Shown here: in pieces, positions 4,943-60,718 of the stretch
Numbering within the stretch: the stretch's first letter is position 1
How the letters are laid out: each line of letters begins with the position of its first letter
Assembly (NCBI GenBank): GCA_038248345.1
Contig: JBBRXO010000003.1
Coordinates: forward strand, 1 to 64,000
Reading direction: 5' to 3'
DNA length: 64,000 nt
Source: Armatimonadota bacterium
GTDB taxonomy: Bacteria > Armatimonadota > Hebobacteria > CAIYQO01
Position numbers and translations under genes: made by a program
The notes under the pieces: generated by a model
Database searches by the model: none
What the model saw: the letters and a program-made list of their open reading frames with translations, nothing else
What the model was told of the DNA's origin: nothing

Positions 4943-5941
4943 ATGAACCATCATGAGCGTATCGCACGGATATTTGCCGGGCAATCAGTTGACCGCCCTG
5001 GTTTTTGGCTGGGAAACCCGCATGACGAAGTAAAGCCGCGGTTGTTAGAACATTTTGGCGTCAGCGATGATGAGGCAATGCGCCGACTCATCGGTGATGA
5101 CTGCCGTTGGTATCCTGCCGATTGGATTGCTAAATATAACCACTCGGAAGGCATGTGGGCATCCGGTTCTTACTATAGCGTGTTCGCAGAATGTGAGGAC
5201 ACTGCGACGGTAGACGCCTACCCCTGGCCTGATGCTTCGCATTTTGACCTTGCTCCCTTGCGAACCAAGGTGAGCGAAGGGGAGGGGAGCTGGCGTTTTG
5301 GTGGATCATGGAGTTGTTTCTTTCATAATGTAGCTGATATGTTTGGCATGGAAAACTACTTCATGATGATGTATAGCGATCCTGATGTTGTCCACGCGGT
5401 CACCCGTCAGATGGTAGATTTTTTTCTGGCGGTCAATAAACGGGTGTATACTGAGGCACGCGATACGGTGGACTGCTTCTTCTTTGGTAACGACTTCGGT
5501 ACGCAAAATGACCTGTTGGTAAGTCCGGAAAAATTCAAAGAGTTTATCCTTCCTTACTTCTGTGAGCTTATCAACCAGGCGAAATCGTATGACGTACCAG
5601 TGCAGTTGCACTCTTGCGGGGCGATTTATAAGGTGATCCCCTGGCTCATCGATGCTGGTATTGATGCGTTACATCCATTACAGGCGAAGGCTACGGGTAT
5701 GGATGCAGAAACGCTCATGCGCGAATATGGTGGTAAAATTACTTTCGTCGGTGGGGTAGATACGCAGGAATTGCTTTGGCGCGGTACCCCCCAACAGATC
5801 AAGGATGAAGTAAATCGTTTGCATGATATCTTTGGCGACCGTTGGATTATCTCGCCCAGTCATGAAGCCATCCTGCCGGAAGTGCCCACGGAAAATATCG
5901 TCGCTCTTTGTGAAGCGGCGACGGGGATGACATTGTCGTAG
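4943..5941 (+). CDS. Uroporphyrinogen decarboxylase-family (MtaA/CmuA-like) protein
   Basis: GNDFGTQ, LHSCG, GGVDTQ and SPSHE motifs typical of the URO-D/MT2 barrel. Confidence 0.8.
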   Translation: MNHHERIARIFAGQSVDRPGFWLGNPHDEVKPRLLEHFGVSDDEAMRRLIGDDCRWYPADWIAKYNHSEGMWASGSYYSVFAECEDTATVDAYPWPDASHFDLAPLRTKVSEGEGSWRFGGSWSCFFHNVADMFGMENYFMMMYSDPDVVHAVTRQMVDFFLAVNKRVYTEARDTVDCFFFGNDFGTQNDLLVSPEKFKEFILPYFCELINQAKSYDVPVQLHSCGAIYKVIPWLIDAGIDALHPLQAKATGMDAETLMREYGGKITFVGGVDTQELLWRGTPQQIKDEVNRLHDIFGDRWIISPSHEAILPEVPTENIVALCEAATGMTLS

Positions 5942-7225: not shown

Positions 7226-7480
7226 ATGCCTAAACGAAATTGTCCGGGACAGGATACCCAATATTGGAAGCACGATGCTCTTTTCGAGGAGCCGTGTGTG
7301 CATTGTGGCAAATCGCTTGAATTCTTCAAAGATGACCTGCGGCGCCTATGTCCGCAGTGTGGCAAATATACTGTAAATCCAAAGAATGACCTTGCCTGCG
7401 CTGCCTGGTGTGCCTCAGCTGCTGAATGCCTGGCCCAAATGGGGCGACGGACATCTGAAGAGGATAAAGAGGATGAGTAA
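7226..7480 (+). CDS. Small Cys-rich metal-binding protein (Zn-ribbon or Fe-S-like)
   Basis: 84 aa with 8 Cys (CPGQD, CVHCG, CPQCG, CAAWCASAAEC) and an acidic tail; strong RBS. Confidence 0.8.
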   Translation: MPKRNCPGQDTQYWKHDALFEEPCVHCGKSLEFFKDDLRRLCPQCGKYTVNPKNDLACAAWCASAAECLAQMGRRTSEEDKEDE

Positions 7481-7673: not shown

Positions 7674-8465
7674 ATGGCACTTAAAATCGCAATAACCGGA
7701 AAAGGCGGCGTAGGAAAGTCGACGCTGGCAGGTACGTTGGCACGTTTATTCGCTGGCGCGGGGAATCGGGTACTGGCGATTGATGCTGATCCCGATGCCA
7801 ATCTTGCTTCCGCGGTAGGCTTAACCGCGGATGAGCGGGCCTTACTTCATACTATTGCCGATGAGCGTAAACTCATTGAAGAACGGACAGGGGCCAAAGT
7901 ATCCCAAGTTGGCCAGATATTCTCCCTCAATCCAGACGTCACCAATATCGCTGAACAATATGCAGTGAATCATGCAGGTGTAGATGTGCTAATCATTGGC
8001 TCGGCACAGCGTGCAGGCGGCGGTTGTGCATGTCCAGAGAGCGTATTACTCAAATCGCTGGTGCGTTATCTGGTGCTCAAGCGTGATGAAGTGGTAATAT
8101 TAGACATGGAAGCGGGGATCGAGCACCTGGGACGCGGCACTGCTATGGGTGTCGATTTGATGATCGTAGTAGTAGAACCGGGACAGCGAAGTGTGGAGAC
8201 TGGGCATCGAGTGCATGATATGGCGCAGAGCCTGGGGATTAAAGAATTTGCTGTGGTGGTAAACAAATCCACTGTGGGCGACGAAGATCGAGCGTGGATG
8301 AATCGTGAATTTGGCGCTGATTCTGTCATTGGGTTGATTCCCTTTGATGCACGTATTGCCGAAGCTGACCGCACCGGCCAGGCGCTGGTTGATCTGGCGG
8401 ACGCCGAAGTATTGGCGCCTTTTCAAGCGATATTTGAAGTATTGCAAGAGCGCGATAAAGCATAG
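7674..8465 (+). CDS. cooC: CooC-type nickel-insertion ATPase
   Basis: GKGGVGKS, DADPD, GGGCACP and DMEAGIEHLGRG motifs. Confidence 0.92.
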   Translation: MALKIAITGKGGVGKSTLAGTLARLFAGAGNRVLAIDADPDANLASAVGLTADERALLHTIADERKLIEERTGAKVSQVGQIFSLNPDVTNIAEQYAVNHAGVDVLIIGSAQRAGGGCACPESVLLKSLVRYLVLKRDEVVILDMEAGIEHLGRGTAMGVDLMIVVVEPGQRSVETGHRVHDMAQSLGIKEFAVVVNKSTVGDEDRAWMNREFGADSVIGLIPFDARIAEADRTGQALVDLADAEVLAPFQAIFEVLQERDKA

Positions 8466-8488: not shown

Positions 8489-9547
8489 ATGAATTTTTCA
8501 CCGAAATGTACGGCTACGGCCATTGGAAGTTTGCCCCACGCTAAGGCGGAAGACGCCGTGCGCGTAGTGCTGGATAGCATCCCCGATGCGCCGATTTGGC
8601 CACAATTGCCCGCCAATGGCATGAACGAACAGATGGAGATGCAGTATTCCGAGGGTCTGCCGCGCGTAGTTATTGACCGCGTGAAAGAGCGCCTCTTTAT
8701 CGACACCACCGGTGACTACTCGATGGACTTGGCGACCTTCTATGAGAACTACATTATGGAGAATATGGATTATTTTCAGATCACTCCTGAATTCTCCAAG
8801 GGTTTCTTTGCTATGGAAGCGGCGCTGAAGGCTGCTGGTGGTATCCGCCCCTTCGTAAAAGTGCAGACCACCGGGCCGATCAGCTTCGGGCTGACTATCG
8901 TGGACGAGAACAAGCGCGCAATTTACTATAACCCGGAATTCATTGATGTGATAGTAAAAGGGCTGGCAATGAAGTGCCGTTGGCAGATTGAACGTTATAA
9001 AGGCTTTGCCGAGAACGTCATTTGTTTCGTGGACGAGCCGATCCTCTCCGCCTTCGGTTCCTCTACCTATGTTAGCGTTTCGCGTGAAGATGTTGTCGAG
9101 AAATTGGGCGAAGTTATCGGTGTGGTTCATGATGCTGGCGCTATTGCGGGCGTACATTGCTGTGGCAACACCGAATGGTCGATCCTCATTGATGCTGGCG
9201 TTGACCTGGTGAATTTTGATGCCTTCGACTTCGCTGACACGATAGCGCTATATCCGAAAGAGATGAAAGCGCACCTGGAAGCGGGCAAAGGATTAGCCTG
9301 GGGCGTGGTGCCCACCAATAGCGCGAAGATCCATGACCAGACGGTAGAGAGTCTAATCGCGAAGTTTGATGCCGGAGTTGATAACCTGGCCAGAGCTGCT
9401 GGTATTGACCGCGAATTGATCCTAAACCAGGCGATGATAACCCCTTCCTGCGGTACCGGATCATTGCCCGTCGCCGATGCGGAGATGGTCTTTAGTTTAT
9501 TGGGGCAGACCAGTATTGCATTGCGACAGCGCATGGGCGTTATCTAA
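8489..9547 (+). CDS. Core (folate-independent, MesB-like) methionine synthase, a MetE C-terminal-domain homolog
   Basis: AIGSLPH, WPQLP, TGPISF, VDEP, GVHCCG, WGVVPT and ITPSCG (Zn-ligand motifs); single ~350-aa barrel inside the acs cluster. Confidence 0.72.
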   Translation: MNFSPKCTATAIGSLPHAKAEDAVRVVLDSIPDAPIWPQLPANGMNEQMEMQYSEGLPRVVIDRVKERLFIDTTGDYSMDLATFYENYIMENMDYFQITPEFSKGFFAMEAALKAAGGIRPFVKVQTTGPISFGLTIVDENKRAIYYNPEFIDVIVKGLAMKCRWQIERYKGFAENVICFVDEPILSAFGSSTYVSVSREDVVEKLGEVIGVVHDAGAIAGVHCCGNTEWSILIDAGVDLVNFDAFDFADTIALYPKEMKAHLEAGKGLAWGVVPTNSAKIHDQTVESLIAKFDAGVDNLARAAGIDRELILNQAMITPSCGTGSLPVADAEMVFSLLGQTSIALRQRMGVI

Positions 9548-9580: not shown

Positions 9581-10360
9581 ATGAGTGCAACAATCGCAGT
9601 TACCGGGAAGGGAGGGGTCGGAAAAACCACCATCTCTTCCCTTATTATTCAGTGGCTCGTAGCCACCGGGAAGTCGCCAGTACTGGCGGTGGATGCGGAT
9701 AGCAACGCCAATTTGAACGAGGCACTCGGTGTTGAATACCGGGCATCTGTAGGCGGAATTCGCGAAGATGCACGTAAAGTAGTAAAAGAGTTGGCGGGCA
9801 TCGCCAAGCAGGAGTTCCTTGACCTGCAGGTGCAAGCGGCGTTGGTAGAGGAAGAGGGTTACGACCTGATCGTGATGGGACGCCCGGAAGGTCCGGGTTG
9901 CTATTGTTTTGCCAACAATGTACTGCGCGAAGTTATACAGCGGCTGGCGAACAACTATAGCTATATTGTCATTGATAATGAGGCCGGGCTTGAACATCTG
10001 TCGCGCCGCACCGTGCTATCAGTTGATTATCTGATCATCGTCTCGGACTGCTCGGTACGGGGGGTACGTACCGCCGGTCGCATCGCCGCGCTGGCGCAGG
10101 AGATGGGCACACCTGTGAAAGAGCGCGGTTTGATTGTCAACCGGGTGCCGGGTGGTGTCTTACCCGCTGGTGTGCAGGCAGAGGTGGCGGCCACCGGGTT
10201 GACATTGCTGGCGGCTGTTCCGCATGATGCCAGTGTCGCCGAGATGGATGGCGGCGGTTTTGCAGTCGCTTCAATACCTGCCGATGCACCTGCCCGTACG
10301 GCCATTAATATTTTACTCACAAATCTGATGTCCCGCGAGCCGGTGATATCTACGACATAA
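9581..10360 (+). CDS. acsF: CooC2/AcsF nickel-insertion ATPase
   Basis: GKGGVGKT, MGRPEGPGCYC and DNEAGLEHLSR motifs. Confidence 0.88.
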   Translation: MSATIAVTGKGGVGKTTISSLIIQWLVATGKSPVLAVDADSNANLNEALGVEYRASVGGIREDARKVVKELAGIAKQEFLDLQVQAALVEEEGYDLIVMGRPEGPGCYCFANNVLREVIQRLANNYSYIVIDNEAGLEHLSRRTVLSVDYLIIVSDCSVRGVRTAGRIAALAQEMGTPVKERGLIVNRVPGGVLPAGVQAEVAATGLTLLAAVPHDASVAEMDGGGFAVASIPADAPARTAINILLTNLMSREPVISTT

Positions 10361-10405
10361 GAATTCTAATCAAAAGTTGAACCTAACCTGAGGAGCTAAA
10401 CCCTG

Positions 10406-12358
10406 ATGTCAAACGCGCTAGATCAAAGCCCAGCGGATACTCACTCAATCGATCAGGCTATCAATACGATGATAGGCGTCGCCAAGAGTGAAGGTATCGC
10501 CACAGTATGGGATCGTTATAAGACCCAGATGCCCCAATGTAAATTCGGGCTCACCGGTGTTTGCTGTAAAATATGCCATATGGGGCCGTGCCGTATTACG
10601 CCGAAAGCCCCGTTAGGGATATGTGGCGCCAATGCTGATACCATTGCTGCCCGCAATTTGCTACGCGAGATCGCCGCCGGTACCGCGGCGCACTCCGATC
10701 ATGGTCGCCACCTGGTGAAGACACTGCGCCAAGTAGCGCAAGGACGTGGTGGAACCTATAAGATCACTGATCCACATCGTCTGCATGAGGTTGCCAGCGC
10801 ATTTGAGATTGAGACGGAAGGGCGCGATGACCTGGCGATTGCCGGGGATTTGGCGGACTTTTGCTTCCAGCAATTTGCTTGGTCAGAAGAGCCTAACTTC
10901 ACCTTGCGGATGGCGCCGGAGAAACGCCAGGCGTTGTGGAAAAAGTTGGAGATTGAACCGCACGGGATTGATGCCGCAGTAGTGGAGTTGATGCACCGCA
11001 CACACATGGGCGTCGACCACGATTACCGTCACCTTATCATGGGTGGGCTAAAATGCTCAATCGCGGACGGTTGGGTAGGGTCATTGATCGCCACTGCGGT
11101 GTCAGACATTTTGTTCGGAACGCCGAAGCCGTTGCGGAGTACTGTTAATCTCGGTGTCCTCTGTGATGATAAAGTGAATATCATCGTCCATGGGCACGAG
11201 CCTACGCTCTCCGATATGCTCGCAGTTGCCGCTATGGATGATGAGCTACTTGCTTATGCTAAGTCGAAAGGCTCTGATGGCATAAATATCGCCGGTATTT
11301 GCTGTACCGCCAATGAGGTATTGATGCGGCACGGCCTGCCAATCGCCGGTAATTTCCTGCAACAGGAGTTGGCTATCATCACTGGCGCAGTCGAGATGAT
11401 GATCGTAGATGTGCAATGTATCATGCCGTCGTTGCCGGAAGTGATGAAGTGTTTCCACACCAAGCTGATTAGCACATCTGAGATAGCGCAGACAATTAAC
11501 GCAGAACAGATTAACTTCGAGGTGGAGCATGGGTATGAGCAAGCTTGTGATTTGATTCGTATGGCTATTGATAACTTCGCGAATCGCGATAATTCACGAG
11601 TGAATATCCCCAAGGAATCAATGGATCTGGTAGCAGGGTTTTCTAACGAGGCCATTTTCCAGATGCTCGGTGGGCGCTTCCGCAGCACTTTCCGCCCGCT
11701 CAATGATGCAATTATTGATGGGCGTGTCCGTGGCGTGGTAGGTATCGTCGGTTGCAACAACCCGAAGGTACGTACCGACGAATCGCACGTAATACTCACT
11801 CGCGAGTTGATCAAAAATAACTACCTGATATTGGAGACCGGCTGTGCCGCTATCGCCTGTGCGAAGAATGGTCTGCTAACACCGGAGGCTGCATTAGAAT
11901 TTGCTGGTGACTCACTGCGTGAAGTCTGCGAAGCGGTGGGAATACCACCGGTGTTGCATATGGGTTCATGCGTGGACAACAGCCGTATTCTACTCGCCGC
12001 CACCAACGTCATGCTTGAAGGCGGGCTGGGGACAGATCTCTCTGATTTGCCGGTAGCTGGCGCCGCGCCCGAGATGATGTCGGAGAAGGCTGTCGCCATC
12101 GGGAGTTATTTCGTCGCTAGCGGCGTTTATGTGGTGTTGGGGCAGCCCCTCTATGTGGAAGGCAGTGAGAACGTCACCAAGCTCCTCACAGAAGAGATGG
12201 AAGATATCACTGGTGGTAAATTCGCCTGGGAGCCAGATCCGTTGAAGGCTGCAAAATTGATTATGGATCACATCGAGAAGAAGCGTGATGCCCTGGGCAT
12301 CAATGCCAAGAAGGAGCGAAAGTTGTACGACATGAAAGAGCGGAGGGAGCTTCAATGA
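10406..12358 (+). CDS. cooS: Anaerobic Ni-CO dehydrogenase catalytic subunit
   Basis: D/B-cluster motif CKFGLTGVCCKICHMGPC; C-cluster ligands HGHEP, ICCTANE, DVQC, GCNNPK, TGC, GSCVD; catalytic Lys in SEKA. Confidence 0.97.
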   Translation: MSNALDQSPADTHSIDQAINTMIGVAKSEGIATVWDRYKTQMPQCKFGLTGVCCKICHMGPCRITPKAPLGICGANADTIAARNLLREIAAGTAAHSDHGRHLVKTLRQVAQGRGGTYKITDPHRLHEVASAFEIETEGRDDLAIAGDLADFCFQQFAWSEEPNFTLRMAPEKRQALWKKLEIEPHGIDAAVVELMHRTHMGVDHDYRHLIMGGLKCSIADGWVGSLIATAVSDILFGTPKPLRSTVNLGVLCDDKVNIIVHGHEPTLSDMLAVAAMDDELLAYAKSKGSDGINIAGICCTANEVLMRHGLPIAGNFLQQELAIITGAVEMMIVDVQCIMPSLPEVMKCFHTKLISTSEIAQTINAEQINFEVEHGYEQACDLIRMAIDNFANRDNSRVNIPKESMDLVAGFSNEAIFQMLGGRFRSTFRPLNDAIIDGRVRGVVGIVGCNNPKVRTDESHVILTRELIKNNYLILETGCAAIACAKNGLLTPEAALEFAGDSLREVCEAVGIPPVLHMGSCVDNSRILLAATNVMLEGGLGTDLSDLPVAGAAPEMMSEKAVAIGSYFVASGVYVVLGQPLYVEGSENVTKLLTEEMEDITGGKFAWEPDPLKAAKLIMDHIEKKRDALGINAKKERKLYDMKERRELQ

Positions 12359-15300
12359 GTAAGATAATCGCCGCCTCCGCAATTAGAGGCGCTCATAAAA
12401 TTGTCAATGACGCAGAAGCTATGGTTCGCAAGGCCATAGCAGAAAAGGGCGCTGACTGCGAGGTTGGATTCCCTGATACTACCTATTATCTACCGGTTAT
12501 TTATTCTTTACTCGGTAAAAAAGTAGAGAAACTGGCTGACATGGAAGATATCCTGGCGGAATGTCGCAATCTGTTGCCACCCATACCGCGCGACGGCATC
12601 TGGCTCCCGTATCTGGGCGGTACGCTTGACTCCGGCATGGCTACACTATTTGCCTTTGAGCTGATCGAGGCGTGCAAATACCTTATCGGTCCCAATCCGG
12701 TGAACGGCATATGGCTAGGAGCCGCGGGCGATGTCATCATCCGTGAGCGCGGTATTGAGTTCGTCGATGGCTCCGCCCCTGGCTTTGCCGCCGTGGTAGG
12801 AGCGGCACCCGATAAAGAGACCGCCGTGAAGATAGCCCATGAGCTGCAGGAGAAGAACCTCTATATCTTCCTGGCGGGCAATACCAATGGCGTCTCCTTC
12901 GCAGAGCAACTGGAAGAAGCGGGCGTGGAACTGGGCTGGGATACGCGCCTGGTGCCCTTTGGCAAAGATATATCCTCCGCTGTTTACGCGCTGGGGTTTG
13001 CCAATCGTGCAGCGCTCTCCTTCGGCGGTGTTAAGCCGGGTGACTATGCGGCAAACTTGAAGTACAACAAAAACCGCATCTTCGCTTTTGTTATGGCTCT
13101 CGGTGAAGTGACAGATGAAGACTATGCGGCGGCTGCTGGAGCTATCTCCTACGGTTTCCCCACCATCGCCGATACTGACATACCGGAGATTTTGCCCACG
13201 GGAATCTGCACGTACGAGCATGTGGTGGCAAATATCCCCCATGACCGTATTGTGGAGAAATGCCTGGAAGTGCGTGGCTGTAAGATCAAAATCACCAAAG
13301 TACCCATCCCGGTATCATATGGCGCGGCTTTCGAAGGTGAGCGTATCCGCAAGGAGCAGACCTTTGTAGAATTCGGCGGCAACAAGACGCACGGGTTTGA
13401 GTATGTAACCACTAAAGAAATAGCGGATGTAGAGGACGGCAAGATGACCGTCATCGGCCCTGATGTAGATGATGTGGAGGCAGGCAGCGCTCTGCCGCTA
13501 GCCATCTGGGTTGAGGTCGCCGGACGCAAAATGCAGCCGGACTTTGAGCCGATCCTGGAACGTCAGATACATCACCTCATCAACGGTGCCGAAGGCATCT
13601 GGCATATGGGACAACGCGACATCATCTGGATGCGCATCAGCAAAGCCGCCAAGGAAAAAGGCTTCAGCATCAAACATTTCGGTGAGATCATTCACGCGAA
13701 GTTGCTCAATGAGTACCCGGCCATCGTGGACAAAGTGCAGGTAACGCTGGTTACCGATAAGGACGAAGTAGAGCGACGGTTGGACATTGCGCGGCGCAGC
13801 TATCGCGAACGCAACCTGCGCGTAGAGTCGATGACTGACGAGAGCGTTGACACCTTCTATTCATGTCTGCTCTGCCAGAGTTTCGCCCCCAACCATGTCT
13901 GCGTCATCACGCCGGAGCGACTGGGTCTCTGCGGCGCTTACAACTGGTTAGACGGCAAGGCCGCCTATGAGATTGACCCCACCGGCCCCAATCAGCCGCT
14001 CATCAAAGGTGAATGTATCGATCCGGTGCGCGGGCAGTGGAAAGATATCAACGAGTACGTCTACTCTAACTCTAAGCAGACCATTGAGCGTTTTAACGCT
14101 TATTCAATGCTGGAAGACCCGATGACCAGTTGTGGCTGTTTTGAGGCTATCGTCGCCATGCTGCCGGAGTGCAATGGGGTGATGATCGTCAACCGTGAGT
14201 TCCCCGGCGATACTCCGGCGGGAATGCGATTCTCTACACTGGCGGGGAGTACGGGGGGCGGGCAGCAGACTCCCGGTTTCATCGGCGTCGGCAAAGCCTA
14301 TATTGTCAGTAAGAAATTCATCTCGGCGGAAGGCGGGCATAAGCGCATCGTCTGGATGCCGCGTGAGCTGAAAGAAGCGCTGAAAGAAGACCTGGAGTTG
14401 ATCGGCAAACGTCTCGGTATTGAGAACTATTGTGATCTTATCGCAGATGAGACCGTCGGGTCAGATACCGCCTCTGTCAACGCCTATATGCAGAAGGTCA
14501 ATCACCCGGCGCTGACCATGTGGGATGTAACCACCCCTTCACCGGAATGCGCTGCCATTGACGCTGCGCGCGGCGTTGTAGCTGCTACCGCTCCAATTGA
14601 GGCGGATGCTCCGGTGGTAACAGCAAATGTAGAAAAAGCAGCAGCGCCAGTCGTTGCCGTGGCACCGACAGCAGTTGCTGTGGCCGCCCCGGCGCCAGTG
14701 GTAGCTGCAAATCAAGTAGATGGTCTGTCCTATGTCATATCAGTACTTGATAAAGTGCGTGCCACGGGCGTTGCACCGGTTGCTGGTACCAATATGGATC
14801 AGCAGATGGCCGCCTTGCAGATGTCCACCGCGGTGAATCTGCTGACAGCTGGCGCCAATATGCTGCTAATGTACAGTGGCGCACTCGGCCAGGTACCGGT
14901 GGCTCCTGTTGCGTTGCCTATTGCTCACACGGCAGTAACGGAAGTAGATGTGGCAGTGGCTCCGACGGTTCACCCGATAGCTGCCACATGGGATACCCCG
15001 ATACTGGTTAAAGAGAAACTGGTTACCTCGGCGAAAATTGCCGTCCCCGCTACCTTTAAGATACCGGGCGAAAGCGCTAGCTTGTCAGTTCGTGAGGTCA
15101 CCCTTGGTGGTAGTGGTACGCGCACCTCGTCGCTCACCCTCGGTGGAGCCAGCGTATTGCCCTTCCGCCATTACGAGGGTAACATTGGGCGCACTCCGGC
15201 AATTGCTATGGAGGTATTTGACCGTCTGCCACGCAACTACCCACAGTCATTGCGGGACGCCTACGGAGATATGCTCACCGATGCGCCGAAGATGGCGAAG

Positions 15301-16008
15301 TACTGCGTCGAGGAGCTAGGCGCGCAGGCAATCAGCATTCGTTTGGACAGCACCCACCCGGACAATGAGGACACCTCTCCGGCGGCCGCGTGCGACTTTG
15401 TACAGGGCGTGCTTAGTGCCGTCGGTGTGCCGATTATTGTCACCGGCCCCAGCCATTACGAGAAGAACAATGCCGTGATGAAACAGGTAGCAAGCACCTT
15501 CACTGGCGAGAACTTGCTGCTGAACTGGGTGGAGACGGATAACTACAAAACCATCGCCGCCGCCGCCATGGCATATAACCATTGTATTGTGACGCAGACC
15601 CCGATTGACGTGAATATGGCTAAACAGTTGAATATTCTCGTCACTAATATGGGGCTAGCTCCCGAAAAAATCATCATCGACGCGCTGACCGGCGCGCTGG
15701 GGTACGGTCTGGAGTACACTTACTCGGTGATGGAGCGTATCCGTAGCTCGGTCTTCACCGGAGACAGTATGCTGGCATTGCCGATGTTAGGCACGCCCGG
15801 CTACGAGATCGCCAAAACAAAAGAAAGCAAAGCGCCGCAAAGCTCCTTCAAAAATTGGGGCCCAGAGAGCGAGCGGGGCGCATTACTGGAGATCGCAACT
15901 GCGATGAGTTTGCTCAATGCTGGCGCTGATCTGCTGGTGATGTATCACCCCATCGCGGCAACAACCGTGAAGAAAAAAATTGCCGAGATGACTCGGTTAG
16001 AGGACTAA
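12355..16008 (+). CDS. acsB: Acetyl-CoA synthase (AcsB) fused to the corrinoid Fe-S protein small subunit (AcsD)
   Basis: A-cluster motifs FYSCLLCQSFAPNHVC, RLGLCG and DPMTSCGCFE. After a linker (~14520-15060) the ORF continues into an AcsD barrel (VREVTLG, GGASVLPF, TPIDVNMAKQLN, ALGYGLEY, GADLLVMYHP). Overlaps the cooS stop (ATGA). Confidence 0.93.
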   Translation: MSKIIAASAIRGAHKIVNDAEAMVRKAIAEKGADCEVGFPDTTYYLPVIYSLLGKKVEKLADMEDILAECRNLLPPIPRDGIWLPYLGGTLDSGMATLFAFELIEACKYLIGPNPVNGIWLGAAGDVIIRERGIEFVDGSAPGFAAVVGAAPDKETAVKIAHELQEKNLYIFLAGNTNGVSFAEQLEEAGVELGWDTRLVPFGKDISSAVYALGFANRAALSFGGVKPGDYAANLKYNKNRIFAFVMALGEVTDEDYAAAAGAISYGFPTIADTDIPEILPTGICTYEHVVANIPHDRIVEKCLEVRGCKIKITKVPIPVSYGAAFEGERIRKEQTFVEFGGNKTHGFEYVTTKEIADVEDGKMTVIGPDVDDVEAGSALPLAIWVEVAGRKMQPDFEPILERQIHHLINGAEGIWHMGQRDIIWMRISKAAKEKGFSIKHFGEIIHAKLLNEYPAIVDKVQVTLVTDKDEVERRLDIARRSYRERNLRVESMTDESVDTFYSCLLCQSFAPNHVCVITPERLGLCGAYNWLDGKAAYEIDPTGPNQPLIKGECIDPVRGQWKDINEYVYSNSKQTIERFNAYSMLEDPMTSCGCFEAIVAMLPECNGVMIVNREFPGDTPAGMRFSTLAGSTGGGQQTPGFIGVGKAYIVSKKFISAEGGHKRIVWMPRELKEALKEDLELIGKRLGIENYCDLIADETVGSDTASVNAYMQKVNHPALTMWDVTTPSPECAAIDAARGVVAATAPIEADAPVVTANVEKAAAPVVAVAPTAVAVAAPAPVVAANQVDGLSYVISVLDKVRATGVAPVAGTNMDQQMAALQMSTAVNLLTAGANMLLMYSGALGQVPVAPVALPIAHTAVTEVDVAVAPTVHPIAATWDTPILVKEKLVTSAKIAVPATFKIPGESASLSVREVTLGGSGTRTSSLTLGGASVLPFRHYEGNIGRTPAIAMEVFDRLPRNYPQSLRDAYGDMLTDAPKMAKYCVEELGAQAISIRLDSTHPDNEDTSPAAACDFVQGVLSAVGVPIIVTGPSHYEKNNAVMKQVASTFTGENLLLNWVETDNYKTIAAAAMAYNHCIVTQTPIDVNMAKQLNILVTNMGLAPEKIIIDALTGALGYGLEYTYSVMERIRSSVFTGDSMLALPMLGTPGYEIAKTKESKAPQSSFKNWGPESERGALLEIATAMSLLNAGADLLVMYHPIAATTVKKKIAEMTRLED

Positions 16009-16021
16009 AGGGAGCACGAAG

Positions 16022-17365
16022 ATGGCATTAACTGGTCTGGATATCTTTAAAATATTGCCCAAAACCAACTGTACTGAATGTGGCGTGCCCACTTGTATGG
16101 CATTTGCCATGAAGTTGGCCGCCAAAAGTGTCGAGCTCTCCGCTTGTCCGTATGCCTCGGAAGAGGCAAAGACAAAGATCGGCGCGGCGAGTAAGCCCCC
16201 GATCAGGTTGGTCAAACTCGGGCCAACTGATCGTGAGGTGTTACTGGGGAACGAAACCGTGATGTTTCGTCACGAGAAGACCTTCGTTCATCCCCCAGCC
16301 TTCGCAGTAGCCTTCTCCGATGAGCAATCAGCGGGCGACCTGGCGCATCTCACCGCTACTGTGCGTGAATATTGCCTGGAGCGCGTGGGTGAGGAGCTTA
16401 CTCTCGATCTGGTACTGATTGAAAACACCAGCGAAGAGGTAGAGCCGTTCATAGCCGCTATCCGCGCAGTGGCGGCCAGCGCCGGACGCGGGGTGATCCT
16501 GAAGAGTAGCAACGTGGCGGCTCTGGAAGCTGGTGCGCAATTGCTGGAAGGTCAGCGTCCCTTATTACATGCGGCGACCACCGAAAATGTGGATGCCGTG
16601 GCAGCTATTGCGCTGAAATACAAATGCGCGGTGGTAGCGCAGGCCGCGACGCTGGATGAACTGGCGGCGCTGACAAAGAAGCTGGCCGCGCTGGGTGTGC
16701 AAGATATCGTGCTCGATATCCCGGCGGATAATATCGCGGCTACGCTGCAGAATAATACCCTTGCGCGTAAGGCGGCATTGAAGACCGCTTTTGAACCGAT
16801 GGGCTACCCGGTCATCAACTTCGTTGTAGAGGAAGACCTGCCCAGTCTGGTGGCAGATGCTTCGACTTTGATCTGTAAATACGCGTCGATCCTGGTGATA
16901 GATACACTTTCCTATCAGGCGCTATTGCCGTTGATGATGTTACGGCAGAATATCTATACCGACCCGCAGAAACCGATCCAAGTAGAGCCGAAGATCTACC
17001 CCATCGGGGAGCCGGATGATAATTCACCGGTACTGGTTACTACCAACTTCTCGCTGACATACTTCATCGTTTCGGGAGAGATTGAGAACTCAGGTATATC
17101 CGCGCACCTCGTTATTGTCGAATGCGAAGGGATGAGCGTGCTTACCGCCTGGGCAGCCGGGAAGTTCTCCGGCGAGAAGATCGCGCAGTTCATCAAATCC
17201 TCCGGCCTGGAACAGCAGGTTAAAACCCGCCGCCTCATCATCCCCGGCTATGTCGCGCAGATCAGCGGCGACCTGGAAGAGGGGCTGAAAGGCTGGGAGA
17301 TAGTCGTCGGACCGCAAGAAGCATCCGACCTGGGGCCGTTTATGAAGCTACAGGTGGGTAAGTAA
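16022..17365 (+). CDS. acsC: Corrinoid Fe-S protein large subunit
   Basis: PKTNCTECGVPTCMAFA [4Fe-4S] motif, ETVMFRHEK, LRQNIYTDPQKP, TTNFSLTY, SVLTAWAAGKF. Confidence 0.96.
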   Translation: MALTGLDIFKILPKTNCTECGVPTCMAFAMKLAAKSVELSACPYASEEAKTKIGAASKPPIRLVKLGPTDREVLLGNETVMFRHEKTFVHPPAFAVAFSDEQSAGDLAHLTATVREYCLERVGEELTLDLVLIENTSEEVEPFIAAIRAVAASAGRGVILKSSNVAALEAGAQLLEGQRPLLHAATTENVDAVAAIALKYKCAVVAQAATLDELAALTKKLAALGVQDIVLDIPADNIAATLQNNTLARKAALKTAFEPMGYPVINFVVEEDLPSLVADASTLICKYASILVIDTLSYQALLPLMMLRQNIYTDPQKPIQVEPKIYPIGEPDDNSPVLVTTNFSLTYFIVSGEIENSGISAHLVIVECEGMSVLTAWAAGKFSGEKIAQFIKSSGLEQQVKTRRLIIPGYVAQISGDLEEGLKGWEIVVGPQEASDLGPFMKLQVGK

Positions 17366-17414
17366 ACCCAGCGGCCACCTCCAGGCCTTTGAGCTAGAAA
17401 CTAGGAGCAAAAAT

Positions 17415-19337
17415 ATGCCTATAGTTCGCTTTCTACCCGGCAATACCACTGTAGAAGTCCCCGTTGGCACTCTCATTCATGAGGCGGCTATCAAGGCGGG
17501 GATAGAAGAGTTACATCTTCCATGTGGTGGTAAAGGTACATGCGGGCGGTGCCTGGTGGAGATCGTTGAGGGCACGACAGATGGGGTGGGACACTCGCAT
17601 TTGGCCGATGCTTTGGCTGGCGGGCGGCTAGTGATGGCGTGCCAGACGAAGGTGCGCGAGGATATAACCGTTGGCATACGCCCCAAGCATGATGACACTA
17701 TGCGGGTGGTGGGTGACAGTCATTTGCTCATCGGCGATGACCTGTTGCCGGATATTGATGATCTCTCACCGCTCTACCGCTTTGTGCAATTGACGGTACC
17801 CGAGGCATCAATTGAAGAGCATTATAGTGACTGGCAACGCATCGTACGGCTGTTAGGCGACTGGGATCGCACATTGCCAACTTGCCCCCTGAACGTTACA
17901 ACCGATATTACAGTATTACGTCAGCTAGCCGAGGTATTGCGAGCACAGGATGGCCGTGTGACAGTGACTATCCGCGAGGAAGATGCCGGTATACACGTTC
18001 TAGCGGTGGAAGCCGGGCATGTGGAAAAGAAAGCCTATGGGCTGGCAATCGACATCGGCACAACCACCGTGGCAGTGCAACTGGTTGACCTGGTTGCGGG
18101 CCGTGTAATAGCGAGTCGTACTTCTTATAACGCACAGATTCGCCGTGGTGGTGATATCATCAGTCGTATCGACTACGCTCGCACACCAGAGCGGCAAGAG
18201 GAATTACGTGGGCTGGTGCTGGAGACATTGCGTGAATTGATCGCAGATACTCTCGCCTGTACGCGTACTGATTCGCAAGCGGTGTATGCAGCTTTCATCG
18301 CTGGCAACACTACCATGATCCACCTGCTACTCGCCCTGCCTCCGCGATACATTCGCGAGTCACCATACGTACCCACCGTCAACACCGTGCCAACGCTTAC
18401 CGCCGCCGAAGTGGGACTACCGATCAACCCTACCGCAATAGTATCCTGCGCGCCGGGGGTGGGTAGTTATGTGGGCGGCGATATTACTGCTGGATTGCTC
18501 TGCACCGAGTTGACGACTAACAGCGAAGAGGTGTTTCTCTTTTTGGATATCGGCACCAATGGTGAGATTGTGCTGGGTAATGCCGATTGGTTGGTCACCT
18601 GCGCCTGCTCTGCCGGGCCAGCTTTTGAAGGTTCTGGTATCAAGTGCGGTATGCGCGCAACTGACGGCGCTATTGAATACTTCGCTATAGCACCTGGAAT
18701 GCAGGAGATTAGCTACGATGTTATCGGTAATGGTAAACCAGCGGGTATCTGCGGTTCTGGCCTGATTTCGCTACTGGGCGAGTTACTATTGCGCGGTGTG
18801 GTTGACCAAATGGGGCGTTTCAATATGGAGCTGCCCACCGACAGGCTTATAAAAACACCTAACGGTAATGCCTTCGTGCTGGAGTTTGCCGCTGAGACGC
18901 AAGCTGGTGCTGACCTTTTCATTACCGAGGCAGATATTGAAAACCTGATGCGCACGAAAGCGGCGATTTATGCTGCTTGCGCGCTCATACTCGATAATGT
19001 CGGATTGGCTTGGAGCGCAATATCGCATGTCTATATCGCAGGTGGTTTTGGGCGCTATATCCAGATAGATGACGCTATCATGATCGGGCTGTTGCCTGAC
19101 TTGGAGGCCGAACGCTTCCATTATATCGGCAACTCCGCCCTCACTGGCGCTTATATCGCTTTGTTGACCGCCAAGGGCCGGCAGCAACTAGCCACCACCG
19201 CTGCGCGCATGACCTACATCGATTTAAGTAGCGATCATCGCTACATGGACAGCTACCTAGGCGCACTCTTCCTGCCACATACAGATATGACGCAATTCCC
19301 CACCGTGGCGGAGAAGATGATGGCGGCGCGGGCATAA
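17415..19337 (+). CDS. acsV: ATP-dependent reductive activator of corrinoid protein (RACo/AcsV; 2Fe-2S plus ASKHA ATPase)
   Basis: CGGKGTCGRC, DIGTTT, YVGGD, DIGTNGE, SAGPAFEG, GICGSG and AGGFG motifs. Confidence 0.93.
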   Translation: MPIVRFLPGNTTVEVPVGTLIHEAAIKAGIEELHLPCGGKGTCGRCLVEIVEGTTDGVGHSHLADALAGGRLVMACQTKVREDITVGIRPKHDDTMRVVGDSHLLIGDDLLPDIDDLSPLYRFVQLTVPEASIEEHYSDWQRIVRLLGDWDRTLPTCPLNVTTDITVLRQLAEVLRAQDGRVTVTIREEDAGIHVLAVEAGHVEKKAYGLAIDIGTTTVAVQLVDLVAGRVIASRTSYNAQIRRGGDIISRIDYARTPERQEELRGLVLETLRELIADTLACTRTDSQAVYAAFIAGNTTMIHLLLALPPRYIRESPYVPTVNTVPTLTAAEVGLPINPTAIVSCAPGVGSYVGGDITAGLLCTELTTNSEEVFLFLDIGTNGEIVLGNADWLVTCACSAGPAFEGSGIKCGMRATDGAIEYFAIAPGMQEISYDVIGNGKPAGICGSGLISLLGELLLRGVVDQMGRFNMELPTDRLIKTPNGNAFVLEFAAETQAGADLFITEADIENLMRTKAAIYAACALILDNVGLAWSAISHVYIAGGFGRYIQIDDAIMIGLLPDLEAERFHYIGNSALTGAYIALLTAKGRQQLATTAARMTYIDLSSDHRYMDSYLGALFLPHTDMTQFPTVAEKMMAARA

Positions 19338-19358: not shown

Positions 19359-19449
19359 TGTAGGGGCACAAGGCTTGTGCCCAAGTCTTAACCATACGAT
19401 TTGTATAATAGAAAACTCGGAAAGAGGGCACATGCCATGTGCCCCTACA
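19359..19449. repeat. GTAG-type REP doublet (REPIN)
   Basis: GTAGGGGCACAAGGCTTGTGCCC (19360-19382) and inverted partner GGGCACATGCCATGTGCCCCTAC (19426-19448); each unit is internally palindromic. Confidence 0.8.
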
Positions 19450-19477
19450 ATATTTAACGGATACAGGAGGACTAATT

Positions 19478-20374
19478 ATGAAATCACTTCTCGAACGCCT
19501 TGCCGCCGGTGAGATCCTTATCTCAGACGGGGCCATGGGCACTTTCCTTCAGGCGAAGGGCCTGCAACCCGGCGAATCTCCTGAGGCGTGGTGTTGCTCG
19601 CATCCGGACGCTGTGAAGAGTATTGCCGAGGCTTACATTGCTGCTGGCTCGGATATTGTTGAGACCGATTCCTTCGGCGGCACTACTTTCAAGCAGCGCG
19701 AATTCGGTCTGGCAGATAAGGTTGATGAGTTCAACACTGCCTCTGCCAAGCTAGCCAAAGAAGCCATGGGCGACAAAGGCTATGTGGCGGCATCGGTAGG
19801 CCCCACCGGGCAAATTGTCGAGGATGAGGGCGGCGATGTCACCGAAGAAGAGCTTTATGAAGCCTTCAAACAGCAAGTAATCGCGCTGGCCGCTGGCGGT
19901 GCCGATGCGGTCTGTATTGAAACCATGTCATCCGTTACTGAGGCAGTGCAAGCCATCAAAGCCAGCAAAGATAACACTGACCTGCTGGTGATTGCTACCT
20001 TCACCTTCGAGCCAGGTGCGCACGGCTTCCGCACAATGATGGGCGTCACCCCTTCGCGCGCCGCCGGGGAATCGGTGGCCGCCGGCGCCGACATCATTGG
20101 CGCTAATTGTGGCAATGGCATCGCTAATATGATTGAGATCACCCGCGAATTGCGCGCCGCCGCCCCTAATACCCCGATCCTTATCCACGCGAACGCTGGT
20201 ATGCCGGTATTTGAAGACGGCAATACCGTATTCAAAGAGACTCCTGCCGACATGGCAGCCCGCGTAAAGGAATTGGTCGAAGCTGGAGCCAATATAATTG
20301 GTGGTTGCTGTGGCACCACGCCTGCGCATATAGCAGCGATGGCAGAAGTGGCACGGGGATGTGGAAAAAGCTAA
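19478..20374 (+). CDS. Stand-alone homocysteine S-methyltransferase domain protein (MetH N-terminal-like)
   Basis: DGAMGT, SVGPTG, IETMS, GANCG, ANAG and GGCCGTTPAHI motifs; RBS AGGAGG; no pterin or cobalamin domain. Confidence 0.9.
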   Translation: MKSLLERLAAGEILISDGAMGTFLQAKGLQPGESPEAWCCSHPDAVKSIAEAYIAAGSDIVETDSFGGTTFKQREFGLADKVDEFNTASAKLAKEAMGDKGYVAASVGPTGQIVEDEGGDVTEEELYEAFKQQVIALAAGGADAVCIETMSSVTEAVQAIKASKDNTDLLVIATFTFEPGAHGFRTMMGVTPSRAAGESVAAGADIIGANCGNGIANMIEITRELRAAAPNTPILIHANAGMPVFEDGNTVFKETPADMAARVKELVEAGANIIGGCCGTTPAHIAAMAEVARGCGKS

Positions 20375-32868: not shown

Positions 32869-35800
32869 TCAATCCAAGAAAACGCCAGCTATATTGGCAC
32901 GATTGTTCTGGTCAGAGTTGATAGCATTCTGTGTGACAGTCAAGGTACAGGAACCGATGAAACGGTACTGCAGTACTACGTGCCCTTGCGTGCCATCAAA
33001 TTCGGCAAGCGTCCAGGTTACACCATTGACCGCATCACCGATAGAGTAAGTCGCGGGGGGCGCTGCGGCACCGCTACGAACAGTAGTTACTACCGTAATG
33101 GTATGGACAGCGTTATCGGTAGCCTTAATTGATACTGCTCCACTGCTGCCCGCAGTATTTTGCTGTACCTTGCCAGTGTGGTAGGGCCCCGTATTCACTC
33201 CATCAACTTTGATGTTTAATGAATTCCATCCGTCACAGAATCCAAAGGTATCAGTCGTGAAAGTATCAATGAAGGGAGCCGATATTGTGCGTTTTGTCTC
33301 CATTCGAGCCCCCCAGCGGAAGAATGCGAATCCGTGGCGTCCCACGGAGCGCGTGGCGATCTCTCCCTGCCCGCCCCAGTTCAGGACAGCAGCTGGCTGG
33401 CCGGCAGCGCCATCCGCGGGCTTTTTAGAGTCTATCTCCAAAATGCGTCCGGTGGAATTCGTGAGCGTGGTAGCCATTACTCCATAGGAGTTGACAGGCA
33501 CATTGGTGATTCTGACATTGATAGTATATTCTGTGGTAATTACACCTGAAGTGACGGTGAGTATCAGGGGAACAGTTGACCCAACAGCGAGGTTCGTCGC
33601 CGGGGTTACTGCTATAGCCCACAACTTCCCAGTGCGCCTGGTGGCTTTTACCGTCAGGCCAATGACTGGTTTCGCGGTGATATTGTCAGCAGATACCAGT
33701 GCATTTACCTGCCGGATATCGCCCGGAAACGCATACAGCGTGGTGAGTTTATCAAGTTGTTGTGCGGGTATTTGCTGATGGGCGGCAAAGCGTACTACGC
33801 CTTCTACGGCGTGGACGGGCCCATACGATTCTCCTTCGCCAGTGGTATCAATACCCGCCAGCCAGTAATAGAAGTCACCAACTCCTGGGACATCAGTGAT
33901 AGTCGTTTCGATGACGTCACGCTTGATTGCCGCCGCATTTATTGGGTCAGGTGTATTGCCTCGGTAGATGGTGTACGCTTGCGCCCCGTCTATCTCACTC
34001 CATGTTACCTGCACTTGCGTATTCGCCATTCCCCAGGCCGATGGATTCATAGCGAGGGGGTTTGCCGTTTCCTTATCTGCTATCCATGAGTAGCGTTGCA
34101 TCACCCCGTCCTTATCATTTTGATAGAGCGCGACGTTAAAGCGCAAAGGCGCTGCCATATCTAATCGCTCTTCGCTGATGTTGACATCACCCTGTCGTTT
34201 TATGGTGACTGGCGCAGTTTTAGCTAACTCCGGTAGATAGGAAAGCGGTATCTCGGCTTCCAGCGTATAGCCCCGTCCATCCAGGCGTTCTTTTACAGCT
34301 ATCTGCACACCGGGCATCGCAGCGTAGCCGGTGAGGTAACTGGGAATTGCAGTGGGGGTGTCACCGTAATACTTACCTTTATTATCCAGCGGGCGCATAG
34401 TAGATGACGGCTCCAGCGGGGCTGAGAGGGGGCGGCAGGCGTTGGCTATTCCGACCAGATTGCCATTCTGGCGCACTGCACTTAGCAGGATGCGAGTATC
34501 ACCATTGATAGCTTTTGTACGATCCTGCGGCGTTGCTGGCCCCAGCAGCAACTCTATCCCTTCCAGTTGATCAAGCTTACTGGTTGTGGCATTCCCCGCT
34601 AGCGGGGTGGAGTCTATTATATCGGCAAAAATACACAGCTTGCCTGCATCGCGGCGCAGGCGCACATCAGCCTGTAATTTATCCCCATTAAGTAAAGAGA
34701 TTGCTGGCACATCTGGCGCCCATTCCCAGTCATATCCATCGACCCCCATATAGCGCCCACCGCTGGTGAAAGGCCAGGTGGAATAAGGGATAGTCCATTG
34801 ACCGGCTGGTGGTGTGGCAAGCTGTATGCGTGGGGGGGCTGATGGTAGTTTAACGTTACCGTCGAGACGTGTTATTTGATCACCAAAGACACCATCGATC
34901 TCCAGCACACGTGCGTCTTCAGTACTTACGGCGAAAAGCAGATGCTTGCCGGTTTTGGGGTCCTTCAGGAAAAGGCCCGGCTGTACATTCTCCACATACA
35001 TCGCGGTTGGTCCAACATCTGTCCATTTTCCCCGGTTATCAACGCCGCACACCCATCCCAGGGTCAGGCCATCGCTGGTGTAGGCAGTGAAGTTAGAATT
35101 TACTTCAGCAGCAACTATCACACCGTCTGATTCGCCAGTGAGATTCATTAGCAAAATATTGTCGCCATTGCGGTAGAAGCGTCCATCATGATGACCGATG
35201 ATCCACTTCACTTTCCCATCTTCGACTTTTATCAGTCGAGTTTCTAATGCGCGATCCCATGCATTTAGTCCCCGATCTGGACCTACATTCCCAACTATGT
35301 AGCGGATGTTACCTGGCGCTGGTGGTGCTGCGAATCGGAAATAATTTATCTGTTCGAATATCGGCGTTAGATCCTGGTCAACATGCGAAGTGTAACTACC
35401 GTTGGAATAGTAGGGAACACCGCGGGCATCAATGCGTGCGGGCTTCATCACACCTGTGCCGGTGTACAGATTCAGGTTGCGGTCTATCCAGACGAAAGCA
35501 TCCTCGCTGGGCGTTTTGGGATCCATCTCATCCGGTTGTATCAGGCCATCACCGTTGGCATCAGCCCATATACGATTCTCTGACTTTATCCAGGGGGTGG
35601 TGTGGACGGCAGCGACCGGTTTCCAATTTCCATCTTCCCATAGCCATATGCCAGACCATTCACCACCTGGCAGCCAGAAGTAGCGTTTGCCGTTCTCGCC
35701 AGTGAAGGCCAGCGCCCGATTGTAACTGATAGCGGAAGCTTTGGACATCAGATCAGGCTTGGCCGTTTGATCGATGCCGTTCTGTGTTAAATTGTAGATT

Positions 35801-60206: not shown

Positions 60207-60707
60207 ATGGAGAAAATCGAAACAACCTGTACCTGCGGCGAAGAGACTGATGAAGCGAAGCGCGCGCGGATCATCGAGATCATCGATGAATTTAAGGGAC
60301 GTGATGGCAGCCTGATCCAGATACTGCATCTGGTGCAGGGGGTGTATGGATACCTGCCGTTGGAGATTCAGCAGTTGATCGCCGAGAGGATGGATATCCC
60401 CCTTTCGGAGGTCTACGGCGTAACGACTTTCTACTCATTCTTTTCCACGCAACCACGGGGGAAGAACACCATAAGCGTTTGTATGGGCACCGCCTGCTAT
60501 GTGCGGGGGAGCGCCAAACTGCTGAAAAGACTGTCAGAAATGCTGGGGGTTGAGGTAGGTTCTACCACCGAAGACCGCAAGTATACGTTGGAGGTCATGC
60601 GCTGTATGGGTGCCTGTGGGTTGGCCCCGGCGGTGATGGTGAACGGCGAAGTTATTCCACAAGTTAATCCAGAAAAATTGAATCGTATCCTTGATAAGTG
60701 CGATTAG
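60207..60707 (+). CDS. NuoE/HydC-like 2Fe-2S subunit
   Basis: LIQILHLVQ...GYLP, VYGVTTFYSFF, CMGTAC and CMGACGLAP motifs. Confidence 0.92.
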   Translation: MEKIETTCTCGEETDEAKRARIIEIIDEFKGRDGSLIQILHLVQGVYGYLPLEIQQLIAERMDIPLSEVYGVTTFYSFFSTQPRGKNTISVCMGTACYVRGSAKLLKRLSEMLGVEVGSTTEDRKYTLEVMRCMGACGLAPAVMVNGEVIPQVNPEKLNRILDKCD

Positions 60708-60718
60708 GAGAAAAGGTA

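Follow-up and report, generated by a model that had tools for sequence, protein, structure and literature searches.

A natural fusion of acetyl-CoA synthase with the small corrinoid iron-sulphur protein subunit, joined by a conserved helical linker module, in an Armatimonadota genome

The window analysed here, a 64,000-nucleotide stretch of DNA from an Armatimonadota assembly, carries a real acsB::acsD fusion, a single gene encoding both acetyl-CoA synthase (ACS, AcsB) and the small subunit of the corrinoid iron-sulphur protein (CoFeSP or CFeSP; AcsD). On balance we favour, by a little, the reading that the fused chain keeps the methyl carrier on a leash beside CODH/ACS, and that a conserved pair of helices within the leash, as predicted, self-associates. 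The gene and its parts are as follows.

12355..16008, + strand, acsB::acsD fusion gene, 1217 aa (ORF, Pfam, NCBIfam)
12355..14526, + strand, AcsB part, aa 1-724, domains A1, A2 and A3
14527..14718, + strand, short helix after the ACS part (aa about 730-739) and arm 1, rich in Ala, Val and Pro and predicted to be disordered
14719..14880, + strand, linker module, aa 789-842, conserved
14881..15057, + strand, arm 2, predicted to be disordered, running into the AcsD N-terminus
15058..16008, + strand, AcsD (CoFeSP small subunit) TIM barrel, aa 902-1217

A preliminary description of this DNA had claimed a single 1217-aa frame holding a complete AcsB and a full AcsD barrel, and this is confirmed by the present data. 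The frame at 12355-16008 (+) runs uninterrupted from an ATG, which overlaps the stop of cooS, to a TAA, and the scan which that description had proposed finds the CdhC and CdhD Pfams in the one protein: CODH_A_N (PF18537) at residues 22-110 and CdhC (PF03598) at 318-472, followed on the C-terminal side by ACS_CODH_B_C (PF19436) at 483-723 and CdhD (PF03599) at 914-1151. The AcsB part is a three-domain bacterial ACS with the N-terminal A1 present; it scores 1073 bits against NF040764 over 10-724 (cut-off 800) and is 46-49% identical to solved bacterial ACS. Its six A-cluster cysteines (C504, C507, C516, C526, C593 and C595) align with solved ACS structures and are invariant in 96/96 aligned fusions. 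The end of ACS, formerly placed near 14520, lies at residue 722-724 (nt 14520-14526). The AcsD part scores 357 bits against NF003376 over 902-1213 (cut-off 280), covering nearly the whole model (4-312 of 313), and falls under the cut-offs of NF040759 (250 < 430) and TIGR00381 (214 < 253); the barrel gives TM values of 0.91-0.94 on the target against 4DJD_D, 2H9A_B and 9FZY_E. The linker exists as described, but measures 177-180 aa by the boundaries found and not about 190 aa, and a consensus scan found no promoter or terminator within it. A separate acsD is indeed absent, since the whole assembly has two PF03599 matches only, in the fusion and in AcsC. Of the 23 matching PDB sequences, not one spans both parts, and a search of the ESM Atlas gave no match at 0.9 or above.

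The fusion lies in a cassette with the order cooC-mesB-cooC-cooS-acsB::acsD-acsC-acsV-homocysteine methyltransferase, where the label CooC for the two P-loop ATPases is our assumption. The other genes of the cassette are listed below.

7674..8465, + strand, CooC/AcsF-like P-loop ATPase 1 (CbiA-family match)
8489..9547, + strand, MesB-like core methionine synthase (zinc-ligand pattern His/Cys/Asp/Cys)
9581..10360, + strand, CooC/AcsF-like P-loop ATPase 2 (CbiA-family match)
10406..12358, + strand, cooS/acsA, Ni-CODH (D-, B- and C-cluster ligands present)
16022..17365, + strand, acsC, CoFeSP large subunit
17415..19337, + strand, acsV/RACo-type corrinoid reactivase (four RACo Pfam domains, all present)
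19439..20374, + strand, homocysteine S-methyltransferase domain, stand-alone (PF02574)

CooS scores above the cut-off of TIGR01702 (708 > 478 bits) and under that of TIGR00314 (87 < 781 bits), and the acsV product is under the NF040756 AcsV cut-off. The MesB-like protein has no Pfam or NCBIfam match and nothing relevant in the PDB; by the zinc-ligand criteria of PMC7857596 its ligands are H223, C225, D244 and C322, and the same His/Cys/Asp/Cys pattern is found in 37/39 full-length MesB-like copies. The gene acsC, which follows the fusion here, is present in 56/57 loci with the module. Among 34 full-length loci the MesB-like gene occurs in all 34 and the homocysteine methyltransferase in 33, while acsE occurs in none, which shows, as judged from gene content, a conserved cassette with two predicted homocysteine-methylating genes and without acsE. 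It is common to Armatimonadota, Acidobacteriota and Methylomirabilota.

The linker module consists of an amphipathic helix (790-803) and an uncharged one (814-841), which together correspond to AcsD 1118-1131 and 1171-1197 copied in condensed form (blastp E 3e-6; profile-profile comparison with unfused AcsD 93%, E 3.4e-7). Where AcsD has the invariant R1174, E1179 and D1192, the copy carries Q817 (92%), Q822 (99%) and N835 (99%), and charged residues per sequence number 0.04 in the copy against 3.05 in the AcsD source. The core motif of the module is present in 115/120 top homologues. Its second helix has a mean majority fraction of 0.83, close to the 0.86 of ACS, whereas the arms have 0.31 and 0.36; the pN/pS values (n=14 genes) are 0.17 for helix 2, 0.23 for AcsD and 0.62 and 0.68 for the arms, of which only the ranking counts since pS is near saturation. 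At the level of sequence these comparisons show that the module was copied from AcsD and is under purifying selection. The low hydrophobic moment (0.10) and positive mean hydrophobicity of helix 2 are as expected if this helix is buried on all sides. An AlphaFold2 model of the single chain (pTM 0.53) predicts a continuous helix at 814-841 with pLDDT about 50-70 between flanking arms at about 30. A transmembrane anchor was considered and ruled out, since it would not suit ACS and AcsD, which have to work on the same side, and since the hydrophobicity of the helix is only mild; the module may still touch a membrane surface.

The encoded frame shows a covalent AcsB-AcsD tether, and the predicted catalytic ligands of ACS and CODH are shown by alignment to be intact. 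Such a tether makes structural sense, since CoFeSP docks on ACS domains A1 and A3 through its small subunit (10.1101/2024.08.05.606187). The tethering suggested earlier is thus seen in sequence as far as the covalent link goes, and from this link we infer a permanent CODH-ACS-CFeSP unit. In this unit a CooS dimer (CooS2) would bind two ACS via A1 and each AcsD would bind AcsC, giving about 0.5 MDa as estimated from chain lengths. The long arms would allow CFeSP to dock on hyper-extended ACS and then to leave, and the undocked CFeSP could visit AcsV, MesB, the homocysteine methyltransferase or AcsE. By analogy with the archaeal CdhD helix we infer that the linker module self-associates: the uncharged 28-residue helix would pack on its copies and join units into larger assemblies. 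In line with this, a second fused group has a different conserved helix in mid-linker. Tentatively, and with clearly less than even confidence, we propose that bacteria may have evolved their own ACDS-like supercomplex, with a duplicated piece of AcsD as the oligomerising helix in the AcsB-AcsD leash. If so, with two fused chains on each CODH dimer, the helices would tie CODH-ACS-CoFeSP units into megadalton particles or a network, converging on the archaeal CdhD scaffold, and a second fused lineage would have reached the same end by another helix.

A simpler reading takes the fusion as a leash only, giving 1:1 stoichiometry and raised local concentration, with the module as a spacer folded on itself or on its own chain and no higher-order assembly. 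The module is dispensable in some lineages, since 5/120 homologues from at least two separate subclades lack it; these remain fused, with linkers down to 63 aa, which is in line with a leash. So are the unrelated or barely related helices that other fused lineages carry in its place: the linker helices of the other two fused groups show no significant homology to the module (HMM E of at least 0.6; profile probability about 1%). A spacer, however, would require neither conservation of helix 2 at the level of an enzyme nor three fixed charge-neutralising changes, and a helix apolar all round would hardly be buried by two helices alone, so we regard this reading as unlikely. The copied helices might instead imitate the surface of AcsD and bind a partner protein in trans, acting as a docking decoy that builds a methyl-transfer metabolon; candidate partners would be a second AcsC, AcsE, AcsV, MesB or the homocysteine methyltransferase. 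The source helices in AcsD are presumably those of the AcsC-AcsD barrel interface, and segment 1118-1131 of the source hardly varies (0.98), in the manner of an interface. Methyltransferase genes travel with the fusion, and in one genus without the module acsC is found on another contig. Yet mesB is retained in that genus, and the invariant polar residues E1120, Y1123 and M1126 of the source are not kept at positions 792, 795 and 798, so that the original binding chemistry has changed in the copy; we consider such a decoy quite improbable.

It is far less probable still that the chain is a polyprotein cut in its arms into ordinary separate AcsB and AcsD subunits. In its favour are the length, the variability and the predicted disorder of the arms, and three loci (L040, L045 and L055) that are broken near or just past the linker, but the arms contain no conserved site at the majority fractions given above, and 37 of the 57 module loci have a full-length single frame, with ACS, module and AcsD bridged in one frame in 11 more. 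Of the three breaks, two are frame changes in the linker and the third is a deletion within AcsD, and several further loci have all genes broken alike, all of which speaks for sequence errors or decay. The chance that the fusion is an artefact of assembly or a private mutation causing read-through is negligible. The window comes from a metagenome assembly (95.7% complete, 185 contigs) and the junction was checked on assembled contigs, not on raw reads. A contig of run X1, which may be the source sample, spans 14340-17500 and one of X2 spans 14487-15013, both with 0 differences, and a single contig of X4, from another study, covers 10300-17500 free of gaps, with 660 substitutions; the stop or indel in the linker that would betray an artefact is thus not seen in these contigs. 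Another sign named beforehand, that close relatives all have separate genes, is contradicted by two homologue searches in which 120/120 and 120/120 top matches (240 in total) carry both parts. AcsD is part of a frame longer than 1100 aa in 18/61 AcsD-bearing genomes of the phylum, and the fused AcsD domains form one clade in a tree (96/87). As judged from their sequences, the homologues already refute an artefact.

Compared with the bacterial CODH/ACS with free CoFeSP of Moorella thermoacetica, Carboxydothermus hydrogenoformans as well as Clostridium autoethanogenum (reference structures PDB 1MJG, 7ZKJ, 6YTT, 9FZY, 4DJD and 2H9A), the present system has in common the three-domain ACS, AcsD barrel, CooS-type CODH, AcsC and RACo activator. 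It differs in that a single chain holds both AcsB and AcsD, the linker between them being about 180 aa long and bearing a conserved helical module, and in a cassette without acsE and with two homocysteine-methylating genes. In the ACDS of Methanosarcina acetivorans a CdhD helix has been shown to form hexamers to octamers (PMC13370988, preprint). As there, the helix here is predicted to lie on the N-terminal side of the CdhD/AcsD barrel in a disordered stretch rich in Ala and Pro, and ACS and CoFeSP would be held together permanently, as suggested by the fused gene. The analogy with ACDS drawn in the preliminary description is strengthened as to layout, because the linker has a conserved helical module between disordered arms, but it does not extend to membership: a two-domain CdhC without A1 would be expected in ACDS, while here A1 is retained, the ACS link is covalent and the CODH is CooS-type, unlike the CdhA/CdhB-type CODH of ACDS. 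The module moreover derives from the C-terminal helices of AcsD itself, with no homology to the ACDS helix detected. A search of its profile against 1.84 billion representatives gave 22 matches; the 21 inspected are fusion-region pieces or an AcsD C-terminus with no archaeal CdhD among them, so the likeness to ACDS is one of layout only.

The enzyme in this genome likely cleaves acetyl-CoA to supply methyl groups for methionine, as suggested by the lack of matches to MetF, formate dehydrogenase and acetate kinase in the assembly, where missing genes may be unassembled given its completeness of 95.7% and 185 contigs. No PF00384 (molybdopterin enzyme) or PF02219 match was found there, and tblastn with the MetF-like proteins of two relatives gave zero matches; a complete Wood-Ljungdahl set was accordingly not found. 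Acetyl-CoA would yield CO, oxidised by CooS, and methyl-CFeSP, which would methylate homocysteine to methionine. The cassette points in the same direction, with its MesB-like and homocysteine methyltransferase genes and its lack of acsE across the full-length loci. A methyl flow from acetyl-CoA via CoFeSP to methionine has been proposed for Dehalococcoides (PMC7857596). As in D. mccartyi (PMC7857596), a MesB-type core methionine synthase is clustered with acs genes and MetF is lacking; unlike in D. mccartyi, the operon here has an intact CODH and is flanked by a second homocysteine methyltransferase, AcsB is fused to AcsD, and an AcsE-like gene lies elsewhere in the genome. Counted against cleavage are the Fhs, FolD and AcsE-like genes of this genome, all outside the cassette, and the MetF and AcsE of cassette-bearing genomes, of which 47/50 have a MetF-family match and 13/50 AcsE above cut-off; in two relatives the fhs, metF-like and acsE genes adjoin one another. 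A CFeSP working without AcsE in archaeal style was also considered and is unsupported here, the AcsE-like gene sitting on contig C32.

The linker module, the commonness of the fusion and the genome without MetF or formate dehydrogenase match are new relative to the preliminary description. We found no description of an AcsB-AcsD fusion in the literature searched, where survey supplements and the extended figures of the ACDS preprint could list it; it is absent from the available passages of PMC5736913, 10.1101/765248, PMC12827605, PMC13737181 and PMC12289521. Current papers divide bacteria, with a stable CODH/ACS and free CoFeSP, from archaea, where a supercomplex of about 2 MDa contains all the parts. 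On the side of tethering this divide is broken by a natural fusion that is widespread; for the oligomer side, the module is a short peptide that can be tested directly. With ACS and CoFeSP already tethered by nature, the pair would be useful for structures of the methyl-transfer state, so far seen by cryo-EM only at 6.7 A (10.1101/2024.08.05.606187), and gas-fermenting acetogens might be engineered on its model. Because databases name most fused chains 'subunit alpha/beta' or 'acetyl-CoA synthase', acsD may be counted as absent in surveys. Where MAGs are labelled Acidobacteriota or Armatimonadota, the cassette may be a sign of methionine supply and not of carbon fixation.

The preliminary description had placed AcsB and AcsD in one uninterrupted 1217-residue frame with no separate acsD in the cluster, and both statements hold. 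The parts of the gene and its product (residue numbers are those of the fusion protein) are:

12355-16008 (+), acsB::acsD fusion gene, 1217 open codons, the start overlapping the cooS stop
residues 1-724, complete bacterial AcsB (NF040764 at 1073 bits, cut-off 800)
residues 789-842, conserved two-helix element of the linker, called the module below
residues 902-1213, complete AcsD (NF003376 at 357 bits, cut-off 280)

All six A-cluster cysteines align with those of solved ACS chains, and none of them varies in the 96 fusions that were aligned. The AlphaFold2 model, which covers residues 15-1214 (mean pLDDT 76, pTM 0.53), matches ACS structures and also AcsD structures, the latter at TM 0.91-0.94 on the target. 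The only two CdhD-family matches in the source genome (95.7% complete) are the fusion frame and AcsC. A stop or indel in the linker had been named as the sign of an artefact; the contigs of three runs agree across it without insertion or deletion, and one of them, from another study, extends gap-free over the entire operon stretch, differing by 660 substitutions. The AcsB and AcsD parts are not covered together by any PDB sequence. No description of the fusion turned up in the portion of the literature searched.

The fusion is widespread. With the AcsD part as query, proteins of 669-2130 aa gave 1077 matches among 8000 candidates, and with a distant fused fragment as query, proteins of 796-2270 aa gave 1476 among 7997; ACS and AcsD were both present in 120 of the best 120 matches in each case. 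Source labels among the matches listed in the second search include Treponema, Oscillospiraceae, Victivallales and Deltaproteobacteria, and a third fused type with a Chitinivibrionales label was met as fragments. By its closest named homologues the host probably belongs to Armatimonadota. Within its phylum AcsD occurs in 61 of 301 genomes, 18 of which, from six families, have it within a frame of more than 1100 aa. In two genomes of the host's own family acsB, acsD and acsE are separate genes of an ordinary cluster. A carefully built tree of 36 AcsD domains unites the 19 fused ones (96/87) and places 10 stand-alone AcsD, each about 325 aa long, as their sister group; a quick tree of 74 rows also recovers the fused clade, with support 94. 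The 36 rows were chosen by hand from three sets of matches, with one long branch omitted, so the single origin that the tree shows holds just for the groups sampled. Protein P0192 carries the module, its AcsD C-terminal part resembles the second fused group and it stands apart in the tree; it may be a recombinant, or else an assembly chimera.

The linker, 63-303 aa long in homologues (median 188), appears to be more than a leash. The module is found in the linker of 115 of the 120 best homologues (of 1077) and absent from the other 5, with at least two losses. AlphaFold2 predicts it as two helices, a short one (790-803) and one of 28 residues (814-841), flanked by Ala/Val/Pro-rich arms predicted to be disordered. 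The conservation of helix 2 (0.83) is close to that of the enzyme domains (ACS 0.86, AcsD 0.81) and well above that of the arms (0.31 and 0.36), and its pN/pS is 0.17 as compared with 0.62 and 0.68 in the arms. In condensed form, the module copies the barrel segments 1118-1131 and 1171-1197 (E 3e-6 by blastp), and it also matches unfused AcsD in profile-profile comparison (93%, E 3.4e-7). In the residue register taken from the blastp alignment, the barrel-invariant R1174, E1179 and D1192 have become the near-invariant Q817, Q822 and N835. Charged residues per sequence number 0.04 in the copy and 3.05 in its barrel source, the hydrophobic moment of the copy is low, and barrel strand 1193-1196 is predicted to be helix there. 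Against 1.84 billion representatives the module profile gave only 22 matches, and all 21 that were inspected are pieces of the fusion region or of AcsD. The two other fused groups carry conserved mid-linker helices of their own. In the second group (P0257-P0376, proteins with Treponema and Oscillospiraceae labels) this is one helix of about 35 residues, unlike the module and with no significant relation to it in profile comparison; in P0199, P0201, P0203 and P0204 (Chitinivibrionales label) it is a two-helix element.

In C. autoethanogenum (10.1101/2024.08.05.606187), ACS domains A1 and A3 are the docking site of the small CoFeSP subunit, which when docked keeps ACS hyper-extended for methyl transfer, so that a tether on AcsD would join the docking subunit to its target, and the long arms would permit it to come and go. 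Judged by sequence, the fusion would work like bacterial CODH/ACS and CoFeSP; it perhaps also works like the archaeal supercomplex ACDS, but two of the features that define ACDS are lacking. The scaffold of ACDS in Methanosarcina is a helix that assembles into hexamers to octamers and lies within CdhD's disordered N-terminal region; the authors describe this region as generally missing from bacterial proteins and are not aware of any CoFeSP oligomer in bacteria (PMC13370988). The likeness of the module to this helix is one of position and layout. The fixed charge loss of the module fits a helix packing against its own copies; alternatively, the module may dock another protein. A leash combined with predicted self-association through the module is the reading to which we give somewhat better than even chances.

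The surrounding gene order is cooC-like, mesB-like, cooC-like, cooS, acsB::acsD, acsC, acsV and homocysteine methyltransferase. A module scan gave 57 loci labelled Armatimonadota, Acidobacteriota, NC10/Methylomirabilales or unnamed bacteria: 37 with a full-length single frame, 11 with ACS, module and AcsD bridged within a cut or broken frame, and 9 broken or ending early. Among 34 loci of 20 kb, mesB, cooS, acsC and acsV are each present in 34 and the methyltransferase in 33, and acsE was found in none. ACS is about 77% identical across phyla, and together with the patchy spread this suggests that horizontal transfer may have occurred. Upstream of the cassette lies an 84-aa Cys-rich ORF (7226-7480, +) with no Pfam match; several relatives have a homologue next to their acs cluster (8 of the 57 loci at the cut-off used), as does one unfused cluster.

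The source assembly has Fhs, FolD, an AcsE-like gene, a stand-alone B12-binding protein and four [FeFe]-hydrogenase matches, and gave no match to MetF, a molybdopterin enzyme or acetate kinase (at 95.7% completeness). By the criteria of PMC7857596, where MesB is linked to methyl-CoFeSP arising from acetyl-CoA cleavage, the 352-aa gene shows the zinc-ligand pattern of MesB. Acetyl-CoA cleavage for methionine is the likeliest use of the enzyme in this genome, going by gene content. Of 57 cassette genomes 50 were searched for MetF and AcsE; a MetF-family match in 47, mostly in frames of 600-700 aa, and AcsE over the cut-off in 13 argue against generalising the cleavage direction. Two relatives could run the synthesis direction, since fhs, metF-like and acsE genes occur together there.

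In genus g48 (genomes 98-99% complete) a fusion with a short linker and no module (L094:6125-10671 in G135, L096:10458-15070 in G111) adjoins a degenerate CooS of about 400 aa, without D- and B-cluster cysteines and without C-cluster H264 and C300; acsC is on another contig and mesB is kept. This CooS may be a CODH without catalytic activity that is retained as a scaffold for ACS, and acetyl-CoA may be cleaved there to supply methionine.

Elsewhere in the source genome, a 1039-aa ORF (60698-63817, +), which we take to be a NuoEF-like flavoprotein whose C-terminal part is GltD-like, is closely followed by an [FeFe]-hydrogenase match past the window end (G000:C3:64505-65410), and the pair is a candidate bifurcating hydrogenase. 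The overlapping ORFs 32869-35997 (-) and 35930-37885 (-) jointly resemble, by eye, the 1666-aa ORF at 38212-43212 and have the appearance of a single large secreted-type gene that a frame change has divided. At least eight URO-D/MtaA-family genes (4943-5941 and 49260-50435 in the window; contigs C2, C7, C47, C53 and C64), a second RACo-like gene on C149 and the single stand-alone B12-binding protein (C20:749-1477) suggest that this genome has additional corrinoid-dependent methyl chemistry.
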